Under the pieces are notes generated by a model. That model ran no database searches. It was not told the DNA's origin and saw only the letters and a program-made list of their open reading frames with translations. 64,000 nt of DNA from Acidobacteriota bacterium (GTDB lineage: Bacteria; Acidobacteriota; UBA890; WLXD01). The stretch covers positions 160,001-224,000 of the forward strand of contig CAXWPH010000002.1 of NCBI GenBank assembly GCA_963666055.2. The letters are read 5' to 3'. The translations under genes were made by a program, and so were the position numbers. Below, piece by piece: positions 19,699 through 31,212 of the stretch; position 1 is the stretch's first letter; the number at the start of each line of letters is the position of its first letter.

Positions 19699-20636
19699 AC
19701 CGCGAAGGCACAACCGGCGGGCCCCTCGCGTACCTCGCCGTGGCCAGCGGCGCGACCCTGTTTTCTGGGCTCATCGTCGCCAGCCGGGCGTTGTCACAGC
19801 GCGGCTTTTCGCTCTACGAGATCTCGCTGAGCGGGATTCTCTTCAGCGGCCTGATTTTCGGTGTCGTGCTTGCTCTACGACCGGATCTGCGTCCCCGACG
19901 CCGCGATTGGGTTCTGTTCTTCGCTTACGGTCTGGTCGGTGCGGTGCTGCAGTTGAGCCAGTTCGCGGGCGTCGTGCTGGGTGTTCCGATCGCGCTCATC
20001 GGTTTGTTGCTCTATACGCAACCGATCTGGACGCTCTTGTTTGGTCGCATCCTGTTGGCCGAAGCTGTGACGCGCCGCAAAGTGGGTGCGCTGTGCCTGG
20101 CGACGGCCGGTACGCTGGTGCTGTTTCAGCCCGGCACCTCAAGCCTCGACCATTCCTGGGTTGGTATGCTGACGGCGTTGATCGCCGGCGTGATGCTATC
20201 GCTGTGGCTGATCTTGGGGCGCATGAGTGGGCTGCGCGGCAACGCGCCGATTACCACCGCGTTTGCCTACATGGCGTCATCGTCACTGATTCTGCTTCTG
20301 GTCTGGCCGCTGCTGCGCTTGACCGTCGGACCTGTCGAGTGGCTGAGGCTTTCGCCGGCCCCGTTCCTGGTGCACTGGCGCTTGGTGGCCCTGTACACTC
20401 TGTTCGCTAATCTGGTACCGGCAATACTGGTGAACTGGGGCGTGCGCCGCATCGACACGATGGCAGCGGGGATGCTGCTGTTGTTGGAGCCGGTGGTGGC
20501 GGCGTGGGCAGCATATCTGGCGTTCGGCGAAGCGTTCGGCAAGTCCGTTTGGCTCGGCGGCGCCTTGATATTGGTCGGGAACTTCGTGCTGCTGGGTGCG
20601 CCTAAGGGGGTTGCGCGTGAGTCAAGCGCAGGATGA
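19683..20636 (+). CDS. EamA/DMT family transporter
   Basis: About 10 TM helices in two repeats; LLYTQPIW, LLEPVVA. Confidence 0.85.
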   Translation: MVQRLNREGTTGGPLAYLAVASGATLFSGLIVASRALSQRGFSLYEISLSGILFSGLIFGVVLALRPDLRPRRRDWVLFFAYGLVGAVLQLSQFAGVVLGVPIALIGLLLYTQPIWTLLFGRILLAEAVTRRKVGALCLATAGTLVLFQPGTSSLDHSWVGMLTALIAGVMLSLWLILGRMSGLRGNAPITTAFAYMASSSLILLLVWPLLRLTVGPVEWLRLSPAPFLVHWRLVALYTLFANLVPAILVNWGVRRIDTMAAGMLLLLEPVVAAWAAYLAFGEAFGKSVWLGGALILVGNFVLLGAPKGVARESSAG

Positions 20637-20964
20637 TCGCCGAACGCATGATCGGCAGTCGCTGGCGCTGCCGATTGTTCTCGACGTCGAGATACATGGC
20701 TACGATGACGCGAAAAAGCCCTTTCGCGCTATTGGCGAGACCGTCAACGTGGGCCGCGGCGGGCTGATGGCGCAACTCGATCGGGCCGTGTCGCCGGGGG
20801 TGCGCTGCTTGACACATTTTCCGCGCGGGACTGGCAAGATCGGCCGCACGATGATCTACGGCACGGTGAGTCGGTCGGAGCTCAGCGGCTCGGGTCACGA
20901 GGTCGCCGTCGTGTTCGATACGGCGCTGCGGCGGGTGGAGATGCCAGCAACGCCGAAGCCCTGA
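20617..20964 (+). CDS. Stand-alone PilZ-domain protein
   Basis: RxxxR (RRTHDR) and N-x-G-x-G-G (NVGRGG), a variant of the D/NxSxxG c-di-GMP motif; beta-barrel-like C-terminus (VAVVF). Confidence 0.75.
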   Translation: MSQAQDDRRTHDRQSLALPIVLDVEIHGYDDAKKPFRAIGETVNVGRGGLMAQLDRAVSPGVRCLTHFPRGTGKIGRTMIYGTVSRSELSGSGHEVAVVFDTALRRVEMPATPKP

Positions 20965-21017
20965 TCGCTCCGGCCGACCAAGGTGGTTGCTGGTCGCGAC
21001 GCAGGTTCTCGGTGGCG

Positions 21018-21914
21018 TTAGTTTGTCACCGGGGACTGCGTGAAGGCTCCGTTCCATAGCACCAAGTCGCACTCGTACGGGTCGCCGTTCCATCCGGCCG
21101 GCGCGGCCGGCCCCGATGCGCCGTCGGATCCCAGCGACGTCAGCGTGTAGGACTCGACCGTGTGCTCGTAGCTCCAGGCGAAGCCCCAGCGGTCGATCGG
21201 AGGCACTGCGCCTAGGTATTTCGGCGTCAGGTCGGCGAAGCTGTCGGCATAGTCGCCTTGGTCGACTGCGTACGTGCCGTTGGCGACGGCGATGGTGCGC
21301 ATGTCGGCCAGCGTACCCCGCTGGCGGGCACGATCGTAGGCGGTAATGAACTGCGCTACGCCGATCATCGATAGGACCATCACGACCGCCAGGATGACAA
21401 GCAACTCGATGAGCGAGAATCCGTCCGTACCGGTTGCTTTTCGTGGTGCTTCCCGTGAGGCGCTTCCGTGGCGGGCCTTCAGAGTCTCCGAAAGCTTGTT
21501 CAGGCGGTCGGCGACCTCCACGAACTCGTCCTTGGCGCGCAGCTGCGAATGCGCGTCGTAGTCACCTTCGGCGAGCCTGCGGATGTGTCGGCTGATGGGC
21601 ACCAGCGGTCCGACAAATCGGTGCAAAACGATCACCGTAAGCACCAGGGCGACGATGCCGAGGATCGGTAGTATCCAGACCGCGCGCAAGAGCTCAGTGC
21701 GGATGGCGACGTCGATCACCGGCGCGAGCGCTGCCGCACTGGTGCCCGCTTCGGTGAGGATACGTTCAAGGACACGGCGAACAGCCAGATAGGAGACTAG
21801 CTGCGCGAGTCCGGCGCCGATCGAGGCGAGGAAGAAGAACACCAGCGCGTAACGGAACTGCAGGCGCGGTCGGAGCAGGTAGTTGCGCAGTCGTCGTCTG
21901 CTGTTTCTGGCCAT
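21018..21914 (-). CDS. Fusion: 2TM + HAMP domain joined to a type IV pilin/GspG-like pseudopilin
   Basis: HRFVGPL...LAEGDY...LRAKDEFVEVADRLNKL (HAMP), then DG|FSLIELLVILAVV prepilin motif with E5, then DRWG..SY...YTLTSLGSDG (GspG-like C-terminus). Confidence 0.85.
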   Translation of the reverse strand: MARNSRRRLRNYLLRPRLQFRYALVFFFLASIGAGLAQLVSYLAVRRVLERILTEAGTSAAALAPVIDVAIRTELLRAVWILPILGIVALVLTVIVLHRFVGPLVPISRHIRRLAEGDYDAHSQLRAKDEFVEVADRLNKLSETLKARHGSASREAPRKATGTDGFSLIELLVILAVVMVLSMIGVAQFITAYDRARQRGTLADMRTIAVANGTYAVDQGDYADSFADLTPKYLGAVPPIDRWGFAWSYEHTVESYTLTSLGSDGASGPAAPAGWNGDPYECDLVLWNGAFTQSPVTN

Positions 21915-22104
21915 CGGACCCTCGTAGGTATCAGTTCCGACCAGTATTGACCCTTTGATGGCCCAATCAGAAGACGAAAATCGCCCCAGGCTGTTTTTGT
22001 CCATTCCTGGTCGTCAGACGTGCACCGTGATCGGGCGCGTCCGTTCCGGGGCGGGTGCACCGGCGCCGGGCTCTCTGCTCGTCGACGTCCTTGGCGGCGC
22101 TACG

Positions 22105-22995
22105 TCACTCCTGAGCCGGACGCTTTACGACGCGTTCGAGTGGCTGCAGGGTCGCTTGTGGTCGAAACGCTTCCCGTGCCGCCAAGTCGTAGCGATCTCC
22201 AGGGGCGAGGAAGTAGAAGTCGCCGCCGCTGTCGATGCGGCGCTGCGCATCGTAGATTGCCACGTAGCTACGACCGATCACCTCGAACCGGTCGCCGCGC
22301 ACGACGATGGCAGTGTCCTCGTCGATGCCGATACCGAGCAGGTCAGGGTGTGCTGCGACGATTTCGAGTAGGTCGAACTGGCGGTTGCGTTGCAGCAGAT
22401 GCTGATCGATTGCAACTCCCGTGACGAACGCGAAGCCCTCCTCATGATCGCCCATCATGACGGTGTTTCCGTTTGTATCGCCGCGCGCCAGGTACTCACC
22501 CTGGATCGTCGCTCCGGCCGACGAGCCGCCGATCACGCCGCCCCGACCAAGCAACGCGCGTAGCTCGGCCTCGACCCGTGTTCCCAGGTACGCATCGGCG
22601 AGCCGCCATTGCCGGCCACCGGTGAACCAAACGCCCCGTGCCTTTCGGATGGGTGCCGCGAAACCATCGCGGTTGGCGACGTCGGGGTCATAGGTGTGCA
22701 GCAGGGTCAGCCGAGACGCCCCGGCGTCGCGAAAGGCGGCCATGCCACCCCAGCCGGGGTCATAGTCGGGGGCGCCCCCGGCGGTGGGGATCACCACGAT
22801 CGGGGCGTCGTTGCCGCCCGCCAGCTGCATGAAACGCTCCAGGATCTGGGGATCGTGCATGCCGCCGCCGACGATAACCAGTGCGCCGCGCTCGGGGCCC
22901 CGTTGGGCGGCCGCCGGCGTCGCCAGCGACCCCAAAGCACCCGACATGGCGGCAATGAGCGCAACGGTACGTATCTGGTTTGTGGCTCGCAACAT
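22105..22995 (-). CDS. Cyanophycinase / peptidase S51, secreted
   Basis: LVIVGGG, IPTA, FTGGRQ, GSSAGA nucleophile, IDQH...RNR, GIGIDE; signal peptide. Confidence 0.88.
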   Translation of the reverse strand: MLRATNQIRTVALIAAMSGALGSLATPAAAQRGPERGALVIVGGGMHDPQILERFMQLAGGNDAPIVVIPTAGGAPDYDPGWGGMAAFRDAGASRLTLLHTYDPDVANRDGFAAPIRKARGVWFTGGRQWRLADAYLGTRVEAELRALLGRGGVIGGSSAGATIQGEYLARGDTNGNTVMMGDHEEGFAFVTGVAIDQHLLQRNRQFDLLEIVAAHPDLLGIGIDEDTAIVVRGDRFEVIGRSYVAIYDAQRRIDSGGDFYFLAPGDRYDLAAREAFRPQATLQPLERVVKRPAQE

Positions 22996-28169: not shown

Positions 28170-28943
28170 CTACCATCCGAGCAACTCGCGCAGCTGGCGC
28201 GCGCGCCGCCGGGAGACGTGCACCTGGATGCCGACCGCCGGCCGCAACACGGCCGTGTAGGTGCCCGAGAACATGGGTGCCAGGTGGTCGACCCACTCCA
28301 GGTTGACGATCGCAGCGCGAGAGACGCGAACGAAGGGCGGCGAGGGCAGACGCTCCTCGACCTCGTGGAGCGCTTGCTTGAGGCGGTAGCGTCCCTTCGG
28401 CGTGGCGGCCCAGGTGATGGTGTCCTCCACGCTCACGCAAGCAATGTCCTCGAGCTGGAGGTTGACGATCTTGCCGGCTCGATGACCTGCCAGATGGCCA
28501 CTGACACGCCGGGTGTTTCCTGGTGTTGCGGTTGGCGTTGTCGGCTGATCTTGCTGCGGGTGCCGCTGCCACAGCCCCTGTCGGACGCGCCTCAATGCTC
28601 GCGACAGCTGCTCGCGATCGATTGGCTTGACAAGATAGTCGGTACCTTCGAGGGCGAAGGCGTCGACGGCGTGTTCTTCGTAGGCGGTCGTAAAGACAGC
28701 CAGCGGTCGCACGCTCTCGGGAAGATGTTCGTGCAATGCGCGTAGGGTCTCCAGACCGTCCTTGTCGGGCATGCGGACGTCGAGAAAGACCACGTCGGGA
28801 CGTTCCTCGAGCACCACCTTGATCGCTTCGGTACCGCTTGCGGCCACCCCGACGAGCTCGACGTCGCTGTGCTCCGCAAGCAGGCGTTTCAGGCGGCGGC
28901 GAGCGAGCGGCTCATCGTCGACAGTTACGGCGCGGATGTTCAT
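28170..28943 (-). CDS. LytTR-family response regulator
   Basis: REC domain VDDEP, FLDVRMP, TTAY, YLVKP; LytTR domain FVRVSRAAIVN, VSRRRA. Confidence 0.95.
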   Translation of the reverse strand: MNIRAVTVDDEPLARRRLKRLLAEHSDVELVGVAASGTEAIKVVLEERPDVVFLDVRMPDKDGLETLRALHEHLPESVRPLAVFTTAYEEHAVDAFALEGTDYLVKPIDREQLSRALRRVRQGLWQRHPQQDQPTTPTATPGNTRRVSGHLAGHRAGKIVNLQLEDIACVSVEDTITWAATPKGRYRLKQALHEVEERLPSPPFVRVSRAAIVNLEWVDHLAPMFSGTYTAVLRPAVGIQVHVSRRRARQLRELLGW

Positions 28944-30040
28944 GACGGTATCCTCATCTCGATTCGAGTGCCGGGGTCGAGCTTGGCGGCGACCAGCGTG
29001 GCAGCGCCGCGATAACGTAGCGCGAGGCGTTGCAGGACGTTGGCCAGGCCGCCGCCCGCGCCACCCGTTCCGGGGCTCAGCTCGACGGCCGCTAGCGAAG
29101 AGTCGCCGGCGCTGTTCGCCAGACGGCGTTGCAGCTCATCGGGCAGTCCAGGTCCGTCGTCCTCGACGCACACAACCAGTGTGTCGGTGGTGCACTCCAC
29201 CCTGATGCGGACGGTGCCCCCCTCGGCGCGTGTTGCCACGGCGTGCTGCACGGCGTTCTCCACCAGCGGTTGCAGCACCAATCCCGGAATGCTGCGCTGC
29301 AAAGCAGCCGGGTCGACTTCCTGCTCGAATCGCAGGCGCTCTCCGAGGCGCGCTTTCTCGACTCGAATGTAGTGGCCCACGGCTTCGAGCTCGCGAAATA
29401 GCGGCACGGTGCCCTCGGCGGACGAACGCAGCGTATAGCGCAGCAGATGTGCCAAGTCGCCAACCAGCTGCTCGGCAACGGCAGGGTCATCGTGGGTCAG
29501 CTCGGCGAGCGCATTGAAAGCGTTGAACAGGAAATGCGGGTTGATCTGCGCCTGCAGCGCTTTGAGGCGTGCTTGCAGCGCCGCCTCTCGCATCGCTGCC
29601 TCGCGTGAGCGGGCGGCCTCGATCTCTCGCCGCATGCGCGCGTGAGAGTAGATCACGCCCGCCAATCCCAGGCCGAGGACCACGGCCAGTGCCGGCAAGG
29701 TCACGGCTTCCCGCCAGCGAAGCAGCCAGTATGAGGGCGGTTCGCGTACCAGCGTCGCCCAGCTGGTAACGATGGTCCCAAGTAGGATGAGCGCCTTGTC
29801 CAGAGGGTTGCGAAGGTAGGCGGGAAAGCTCGCGTAGCTCGGCTCGACGAGGCGACGGAAGACGATACCGCTGAGTCCACCGCAAAGCAGGGCCCATCTG
29901 GGCTCCCAGGCGCTGTGCAGGTACCAGAGCAGCAGCAGCGACACCAGCGCTCCGCCGAGAGCAGCGCCGAGGTCCGAGACCACACCGCGGACGCCGCGTC
30001 GGTGCGCCGGTCGCCCTGGCACGGTTGTCTCGGTAGTCAT
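28940..30040 (-). CDS. LytS/YehU-type sensor histidine kinase
   Basis: LQAQINPHFLFNAFN H-box, LQPLVENAVQH N-box, VEDDGPG, GGGLANV; 4-TM N-terminus. Confidence 0.95.
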   Translation of the reverse strand: MTTETTVPGRPAHRRGVRGVVSDLGAALGGALVSLLLLWYLHSAWEPRWALLCGGLSGIVFRRLVEPSYASFPAYLRNPLDKALILLGTIVTSWATLVREPPSYWLLRWREAVTLPALAVVLGLGLAGVIYSHARMRREIEAARSREAAMREAALQARLKALQAQINPHFLFNAFNALAELTHDDPAVAEQLVGDLAHLLRYTLRSSAEGTVPLFRELEAVGHYIRVEKARLGERLRFEQEVDPAALQRSIPGLVLQPLVENAVQHAVATRAEGGTVRIRVECTTDTLVVCVEDDGPGLPDELQRRLANSAGDSSLAAVELSPGTGGAGGGLANVLQRLALRYRGAATLVAAKLDPGTRIEMRIPS

Positions 30041-31212
30041 GTGGTGAGCTCGCGTGGTCGTAGGACGAGCAGCGTTATGTCGTCGGCCCGCTCGGCATCG
30101 GGTCCGGTGTGGCGATGGAGCGCGGCGAGCACCGCAGCGCTGATGTCAGCTGCGGTGCCATGACGGTGGGCTTGTGTCACCTGCTCCAGGCGCCCCTCGC
30201 CGAACTCCTCGGCGTGGCCATCTACAGCCTCGGTGACGCCGTCGGTATAGATCAACAGGATCTCGTCGAGCTCCATGGTGCGCTCTTGCAGCTCGTACTC
30301 GCTGTCGGCGAACAGCCCCAGCGGTCGCCCACCGCCGAACAACCGGTGCACTGCATCTGGGCCGATGATCAGCGGGGGGTTGTGGCCGGCGTTCACGTAG
30401 CGCAAGTATCCAGCCAGTGTCAGATGCCCGACGAAGAACGTCGCGTAGCGTTCGGGTGCGGTGCGCTCGACCAGGAAACGGTTCACCAGGCGGCAGATTT
30501 CGGCGAGGTCGTCATGTACCGAGTGGGCTGCAAGAAACGCGGATTGTAGCGACGACATGAGGAACGCGGCAGGCACACCCTTGCCGGATACGTCACCCAC
30601 GGCGAAACAAATGCCGTGCTCGCCGCGGTCGAGAACCTCGTAGTAGTCGCCACCCACCTGCCGTGAGGCGATGTTGACCGCATGTGTCTCTACCCACGAC
30701 CGGGTCGGCGCTCGTCCGCGCAGCAAGCTTTGCTGGATTCGACCGGCGATCTGAAGGTCGTCCTCCATCCGCTGCTTGGCCTCGATCTCCCGCTCCAGGC
30801 GCCGGTACGTATAGATCAGCGACGCCAAGCCGAGGCCCAGGATTACACCCAATACAGGCAGGGTGATCGCCTCGCGCCAGCGCAGCAGCCAATAGGATGC
30901 CGGCTCGCGAGCGAGCGTGCCCCAGGTGGCGAACACCGTCCCCAGTGCGATCACCCCGACGCTCAACGGATGTCGCAGATATGGAGGGAACGCCGAGTAG
31001 CTGGGGCGCACGAACCCTCGCGTCGTCACGCCGCCCAGGCCGCCGCAGACAAGCGCCCAGATCCAACCCGGATGTCGCTCGCCGTGCAGATAGAGCAGGA
31101 GGACGTATGCCAGCAGCGTGCCGATGGTGGCTGCCAGCAGGTCGGCAGCGAGACGCTGCCCGATGCCCGGGTCGGGCGCTGATTCGCCGATTGACGCCGA
31201 TGCAGTCGTCAT
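30037..31212 (-). CDS. Membrane-bound PP2C/SpoIIE (RsbU-like) phosphatase
   Basis: IQQSLL, GGDYY, GDVSGKGVPAA, NAGHNPP, YTDGVTEA, DDITLL; 4-TM N-terminus. Confidence 0.95.
   Translation of the reverse strand: MTTASASIGESAPDPGIGQRLAADLLAATIGTLLAYVLLLYLHGERHPGWIWALVCGGLGGVTTRGFVRPSYSAFPPYLRHPLSVGVIALGTVFATWGTLAREPASYWLLRWREAITLPVLGVILGLGLASLIYTYRRLEREIEAKQRMEDDLQIAGRIQQSLLRGRAPTRSWVETHAVNIASRQVGGDYYEVLDRGEHGICFAVGDVSGKGVPAAFLMSSLQSAFLAAHSVHDDLAEICRLVNRFLVERTAPERYATFFVGHLTLAGYLRYVNAGHNPPLIIGPDAVHRLFGGGRPLGLFADSEYELQERTMELDEILLIYTDGVTEAVDGHAEEFGEGRLEQVTQAHRHGTAADISAAVLAALHRHTGPDAERADDITLLVLRPRELTT

Follow-up and report, generated by a model that had tools for sequence, protein, structure and literature searches.

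A membrane-bound HAMP module fused ahead of a PilA-derived pilin in Acidobacteriota, a probable substrate of the prepilin peptidase PilD

A prepilin leader is commonly regarded as a short peptide to be discarded; signal relay is the established role of HAMP domains. A single gene in a 64,000-nucleotide stretch of Acidobacteriota DNA (the window) brings the two together, since a membrane module with a HAMP domain occupies the place of the leader, and it raises the question of whether the product is cut like a prepilin and what each of its halves would then do. For comparison, prepilin leaders in S. sanguinis are 8–18 aa long according to the available part of the source (PMC6497953).

The fused ORF (P0001; 21018..21914, minus strand, as are all the parts given here) encodes 298 aa without a stop and has known homologs. 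Pfam, NCBIfam, and hydropathy agree on the order originally predicted for it, that is, TM1, loop, TM2, HAMP, linker, G165|F166-SLIE, and pilin in one reading frame. A basic cytoplasmic N-terminal motif shared with a family of stand-alone modules (aa 1–22; 21849..21914) is followed by TM1 (aa 23–41; 21792..21848; hydropathy 1.99, helical in the model), a periplasmic helical hairpin located by hydropathy and the model (aa 42–78; 21681..21791), and TM2 (aa 79–97; 21624..21680; hydropathy 2.96). The loop had been described as short and the front half as a ligand sensor; the loop is in fact 37 aa long, helical, and free of any sensor domain, and a role as ligand sensor is unsupported. The HAMP domain (aa 97–146; 21477..21626) has a conserved H-R-x-x-G-P entry, scores above the Pfam cut-off (PF00672; 28.9 bits versus 25), and is modeled with pLDDT 87–97. 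It leads into a variable linker (aa 147–164; 21423..21476) ending in a basic stretch that resembles a prepilin leader. The predicted PilD cut lies in the class III site G165|F166-S-L-I-E170 (21405..21422), in which the Gly codon is 21422–21420 and E170 is Glu+5. The hydrophobic helix of the pilin, a third TM, comes next (21348..21419), with M179 and A187 in place of Gly14 and Pro22, and a head paralogous to that of PilA completes the protein (21021..21347). Matches to N_methyl (165–184) and T2SSG (232–268) both stay below the Pfam cut-off, and the NCBIfam pilin and pseudopilin models start at 159–165 in every case.

Hydropathic segments are found at 23–41, 79–97, and 168–186, and the stretch ahead of the first contains eight K/R and no D/E, which argues for an N-in orientation with HAMP, linker, and G|F bond on the cytoplasmic side, where the bond had originally been placed. 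We infer a protein with three TM segments, its N-terminus inside, HAMP and linker in the cytoplasm, and the pilin head in the periplasm. AlphaFold2, run on 28 sequences, returned HAMP helices at 104–115 and 132–149, a long helix at 168–219, and a beta head (pTM 0.39), with pLDDT below 50 over residues 151–168 of the linker region; modeled alone, the module forms a long helical hairpin plus HAMP (mean pLDDT 87.5). Foldseek searches with the models of the fused protein and of the module gave no match at E ≤ 0.001, the module matching HAMP structures of Af1503 weakly (E about 1), and a search of the ESM Atlas with the whole protein gave no usable match. The TM-HAMP unit typical of HAMP sensors (kinases, chemoreceptors, cyclases) is present, but the output domain that is continuous with HAMP helix 2 in such proteins is replaced by a variable, disordered linker, and no longer homolog was found among 4754 candidates of 523–2000 aa, which is weak evidence.

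The window is a metagenome-type assembly, and an unusual fusion in such DNA could arise from misassembly or faulty gene calling. A homolog search returned 37 matches, 28 of which (the query included) are near-full-length fusions with 42–76% identity; the remaining nine are five partial proteins that include the junction, two module-only pieces, and two stand-alone pilins. Two further fusions (P0038 and P0039) from a profile search bring the total to 30, so that the two parts are by no means always separate genes, and the named records among the fusion homologs are Acidobacteriota. The junction is also crossed by contigs of runs X3 and X4, which stem from two samples in two studies and either of which may be the source of the window; over 20500–22300 they show zero differences. 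Because of this set of divergent full-length homologs, which includes fusions in eight genomes of two genera, we regard the artefact explanation as refuted, with virtually no chance of being correct. A separate prepilin made from an internal start was considered as well. There is no in-frame ATG or GTG in the linker, as the original prediction had it, and TTG is absent too; the nearest upstream in-frame start, a GTG at V132 in HAMP helix 2, lies 33 codons upstream with a weak SD (-5.1 kcal), and three of eight other loci have no in-frame start within 45 codons of the site. The internal start was rejected because the V132 GTG, though present, is unconserved.

If the protein is made in one piece, the cut site becomes the critical element. 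Gly-1 is found in 29/30 fusions, Phe+1 in 29/30 (Tyr in one), Ser+2 in 30/30, and Glu+5 in 29/30; positions farther upstream of Gly-1 reach just 0.20–0.53. The motif search, which all 30 proteins satisfied, asked for residues +1, +2, and +5 and left Gly-1 free, and alignment A1, in which F166 and S167 are invariant, agrees. Column conservation, 0.40 in the linker and 0.59–0.81 elsewhere (HAMP 0.70; aa 5–22 0.81), rises to 0.91 at the site, and the cut site is under selection. K/R residues occur within -2 to -9 of the site in 29/30 fusions. The class III site with its Glu at +5 is thus verified in position and conserved in the family, and with a hydrophobic run of ∼21 residues the full prepilin signal is present; what is missing is the short hydrophilic N-terminal leader, since the prefix is 165 aa long, contains two TM helices, and has no conserved internal start.

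The host genome encodes an intact PilD (G000:C15:2200449-2201237) with both aspartate motifs and a Cys-rich methylase domain, located within a pilB-pilT-pilC-pilS-pilR-pilA cluster that includes a PilS-like kinase and a sigma-54 activator. Gly-1 is the residue required for PilD processing, as stated in the accessible parts of two sources (PMC6497953; bioRxiv 2022.05.13.491915). A GXGD protease related to PilD cleaves MBP-fused substrates (PMC2947513, available portion), and cleavage-deficient alleles have been used in Caulobacter to block processing of T18-PilA fusions (PMC7196804); by analogy, both suggest that a large N-terminal part is tolerated by the peptidase. As far as cleavage alone is concerned, it is quite probable that PilD cuts after G165 and yields a 165-aa module and a methylated pilin.

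Might the HAMP domain control this cut? According to the original prediction, the TM-HAMP unit senses a stimulus and its conformation determines whether PilD gains access to G165, giving a signal-controlled supply of pilin. The HAMP domain is well conserved and the site is tethered to it, but the distance from HAMP to Gly varies from 17 to 44 aa in the 30 proteins (66 in the separate pair P0142/P0183 described below), there is no helical register, and the linker is predicted to be disordered, which makes gating unlikely; the absence of a sensor domain from the loop and the usual occurrence of the module without an attached pilin also count against it. We consider gating improbable, and this part of the original prediction is unsupported.

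The pilin half, whose head had been described as resembling GspG, the major pseudopilin of type II secretion (T2SS), is closer to PilA. Identity of the head is 54% and 49% with the genome's two PilA-type pilins and 32% with its GspG-like protein, and a quick tree of 108 heads places 29/30 fused heads together (SH-aLRT 98) in the vicinity of PilA types. The fold is that of a pilin, with the long helix followed by beta strands; in Foldseek, EpsG/PulG/XcpT and Neisseria pilin rank first for the head, though E exceeds 0.001 in every row. The likeness to T2SS GspG consists of this head fold and a TIGR01710 match of 38.8 bits, far below the cut-off of 88.85 and similar to the match given by the genome's own pilA, and the gene stands alone rather than in a gsp cluster. 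Identification as GspG was ruled out by the TIGR01710 score, the identities, and the head tree. Members of the same head family without a class III signal also exist (G000:C15:1637374-1638486, P0044, P0045, P0052, and P0061), some of which carry two heads or follow other membrane segments, and the pilin head appears to be reused as a module.

Nor does the pilin half have the N-terminal helix of a type IVa major pilin. Gly14 and Pro22 are each present in 1/30 fusions, as against 63/72 and 61/72 stand-alone pilins, respectively, and the nearest stand-alone relatives of the fused pilins retain both; other glycines are found in fused members, for example at +17 in 22/30. The two residues lie on either side of the segment that melts during assembly (PMC5059446, available part). 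In P. aeruginosa, pili of the P22A mutant still form, although twitching is reduced and binding to PilS is reportedly disrupted (bioRxiv 2022.05.13.491915, in the part available). Because P22A pili assemble and other glycines are present, loss of Gly14/Pro22 is no bar to assembly, and it marks a specialization rather than an inability to assemble.

The altered helix would also fit a pilin that never leaves the membrane, and hence a three-TM receptor or decoy that is not cut at all, in which the pilin part samples PilS, PilC, or minor pilins and HAMP relays the result to a partner. Pilins in the membrane are known inputs to PleC and PilS (PMC7196804), and one family member seen on ten contigs (P0002) has Arg at -1, which makes it uncuttable by the usual rule, and is otherwise intact. 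On the other hand, Gly-1, whose known role is in processing, is kept in 29/30 proteins of the main family and in both P0142 and P0183, and a disordered linker is poorly suited to conformational relay; we therefore judge an uncleaved receptor to be distinctly unlikely, if somewhat less so than gating.

The module half has relatives of its own. Stand-alone modules of 150–170 aa have the same N-terminal motif and the same H-R-x-x-G-P HAMP entry, and the predicted released piece of 165 aa matches this natural family in size and type. R7 and Q19 are kept at ≥90% in 46 modules, and searches of stand-alone modules against Pfam gave HAMP at E ≤ 0.01 in 22/30 and nothing else consistently. ESM Atlas clusters of the module bear the name "hypothetical" and are commonest in Bdellovibrionota and Omnitrophota. 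One 307-aa protein (P0144) contains the 2TM-HAMP module duplicated in tandem.

In the host family, seven of nine stand-alone genes lie directly after pilX/V/W-like genes and one lies before a PilX-like start, the ninth having no pilin neighbor; because these loci are related, they are not independent. The modules they encode lie in the sister group of the fused modules in a quick tree (SH-aLRT 95) that used 20/30 fusions and skipped three distant rows. The window genome's own stand-alone copy (L074; G000:C3:55934-56416), also located after pilX/V/W-like genes, has an early TAA, confirmed in three runs, so that no intact module other than the fusion was found in that genome. Beyond the host family, by motif scan and by eye, an adjacent pilin gene was seen in 0/26 distant Acidobacteriota loci (28 loci less two PhoR-like kinases that were dropped) and in 0/8 stand-alone metagenome loci, six of which are under 2.5 kb; a general pilus link of the module outside the host family is unsupported in these 26 and 8 loci. 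Six distant modules (L025, L029, L030, L038, L049, and L050) are divergent from a conserved DUF6982 - HU - PBP1A block, and in at least four of the 26 distant loci a pilin-like gene is found 3–4 kb off, past the DUF6982, HU, and PBP1A genes. Elsewhere in the host genome (G000:C15:801108-803791), a pilin-motif gene is followed directly by that of a 702-aa membrane signaling protein with a HAMP-like stretch.

A predicted complex of a module dimer with the pilin scored 0.36, compared with 0.00 for the best control (runs 0.40/0.36/0.00), a range in which the tool is more often wrong than right. Scoring covered the pilin partner only, with contact agreement ≥10% and partner pLDDT ≥68; the mark was reached by 116/157 solved and 2/215 mismatched pairs in a benchmark, in which 18/157 solved pairs and both passing mismatches reached it at scores ≤0.60. 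The model thus lends weak support to a module dimer-pilin complex.

Among the order's 26 genomes, 5/5 of genus g1 and 3/3 of genus g5 have the fused form, which was not found in the three genomes of g2–g4. None of the 15 genomes of family f2 shows it, a pilin half belonging to the fused clade being truncated by a contig end in G010, and G016, a 97% complete genome of the host family, has neither the fused nor the stand-alone form. dN is lower than dS in both module and pilin in 7/7 gene pairs, and both halves are, by this sequence measure, under purifying selection. Nevertheless, in the syntenic copy of the same-genus genome G019 the Gly codon is replaced by TGA and the pilin part is frameshifted, and the copy in G020, also of that genus, has a TAG at codon 38, which means that the gene is dispensable in some lineages. 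New combinations occur as well. P0142 and P0183, which are 78% identical and known from one contig each, couple a module of a distant subfamily to a different pilin, with Gly|Phe once more between the two; their modules nest among stand-alone forms such as P0184 in a quick tree, and these two sequences probably represent a second, independent fusion. No additional fusion of the P0142 type was found in 401 genomes of the phylum, where module and pilin matches are always on separate contigs. P0020 and its three cluster mates carry a g1-type module with a third head, in which Gly14/Pro22 are kept and position +5 is Asp. G019 has a second fusion (L010:5017-5943), 8 kb from a PilA paralog, whose different pilin head includes a poly-lysine run that varies in length among four cluster members (306–310 aa).

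Such losses bring up the possibility that the link means nothing: neighboring genes fused by accident, PilD re-separates the products at no cost, and the fusion stays in place because the pilin no longer has a start of its own. The linker does look like a module tail joined to a pilin leader, the module stands alone in other lineages, one Gly has changed to Arg, two genomes have broken copies, and in one of these the gene has split at the Gly codon and its pilin part is decaying. However, the module type has been fused to three different pilin heads, its nearest stand-alone relatives adjoin minor pilins, and the membrane helix of the fused pilin clade is systematically altered, while the closest stand-alone pilins keep Gly14/Pro22. 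A neutral fusion is in our view unlikely, but it comes second among the readings compared here, ahead of the uncleaved receptor and of gating.

First in that order, at about even chances, is that the fusion joins a 2TM-HAMP module to a PilA-derived pilin as escort or adaptor, and that PilD splits the precursor into a pilus-accessory module and a specialized pilin. PilD would cut the conserved Gly|Phe bond and Phe166 would be N-methylated, turning one precursor into two inner-membrane proteins. The flexible linker would let the chain loop back from the HAMP tip to the membrane surface, which fits with a linker that is never shorter than 17 aa. More tentatively, the module may be a pilus accessory, dimerized through HAMP, that retains pilin helices in the membrane or acts as their escort there, and the fusion may secure 1:1 synthesis of module and client. 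Having lost Gly14 and Pro22, the client is likely a low-abundance or membrane-resident pilin rather than a bulk filament subunit. A bolder and rather unlikely reading is that PilD acts as a signaling protease: the tethered pilin would be a test substrate, and the freed HAMP module would inform the pilus machine or PilS-PilR of how much prepilin can be processed or how much pilin the membrane contains, making the "leader" an active product of a design that arose at least twice.

The fused gene stands by itself in a conserved neighborhood of non-pilus genes, apart from the pil cluster, and its upstream region does not have the sigma-54-type motif present before pilA; no sigma-70 promoter or terminator was found for it. 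An imperfect inverted repeat (21973..22001; no strand assigned) lies 60–90 nt upstream, and a similar block precedes the gene in the same-genus loci L001, L002, L009, L010, and L011, including a non-syntenic copy; it is possible that it is a shared regulator site. The convergent PilZ neighbor of the original prediction exists as an ORF (20596..20964, plus strand) that is probably outside the system, with an RxxxR motif that is kept and a second motif that is changed. It has no Pfam match in the window and sub-cut-off matches in three orthologs, adjoins the gene in the window and in L001, L002, L009, and L011 but not in L003–L005 or L010, and is absent next to it in three of five related loci. 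A link to the fused gene was rejected since the neighbor is limited to one genus, and any role for it is unsupported. Farther along the window (28170–31212), genes for a LytTR-type regulator, a membrane kinase-like protein, and a PP2C-like phosphatase stand in a row that is syntenic in L001–L003 and L005, and the kinase-like and PP2C-like proteins share a similar N-terminal membrane domain.

How does the fusion relate to known systems? Like type IVa PilA prepilins, it has a basic stretch, Gly-1, Phe+1, Glu+5, a hydrophobic helix, and a pilin head; it differs in its 165-aa "leader" with two TM and HAMP, in the loss of Gly14/Pro22, and in its location and upstream region. In common with Af1503 of Archaeoglobus, which is not known to have an output domain, the module has TM helices followed by HAMP without an output. 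Compared with receptors of this type, the module lacks an extracellular sensor, has a conserved N-terminal motif of its own, and is fused to or located beside pilins in the host family. PilS of Pseudomonas and PleC of Caulobacter likewise tie two-component-type membrane helices functionally to pilin helices (PMC7196804), but each is a complete kinase binding its pilin in trans, whereas the fusion has no kinase domain and its pilin is covalently attached until the predicted cut. Modular pilins, such as S. sanguinis PilB (Raynaud et al., 2021; PMC8179133, available part), similarly have a functional module grafted on a pilin via a linker. There, the pilin comes first and the C-terminal module is displayed on the fiber; here, the order is reversed, and the N-terminal, membrane-bound module is predicted to be cut off. 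According to the accessible text, the survey of modular pilins demanded an N-terminal motif, and its three supplements contain no HAMP entry (PMC8179133). Full-text literature searches, in which subscription journals are mostly uncovered, turned up among the papers listed no pilin described as having a membrane domain at its N-terminus. The parts are known; what appears to be new is how they are arranged and the use of PilD that this implies.

To our knowledge, pilin finders inspect N-termini only. If PilD cuts the fusion, then the peptidase can handle a site that lies within the protein, after a folded membrane domain, and can act as a polyprotein splitter, and further hidden PilD substrates would have been missed by present annotation. 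For the widespread, unnamed family of output-less 2TM-HAMP proteins, the fusion provides a first functional lead.
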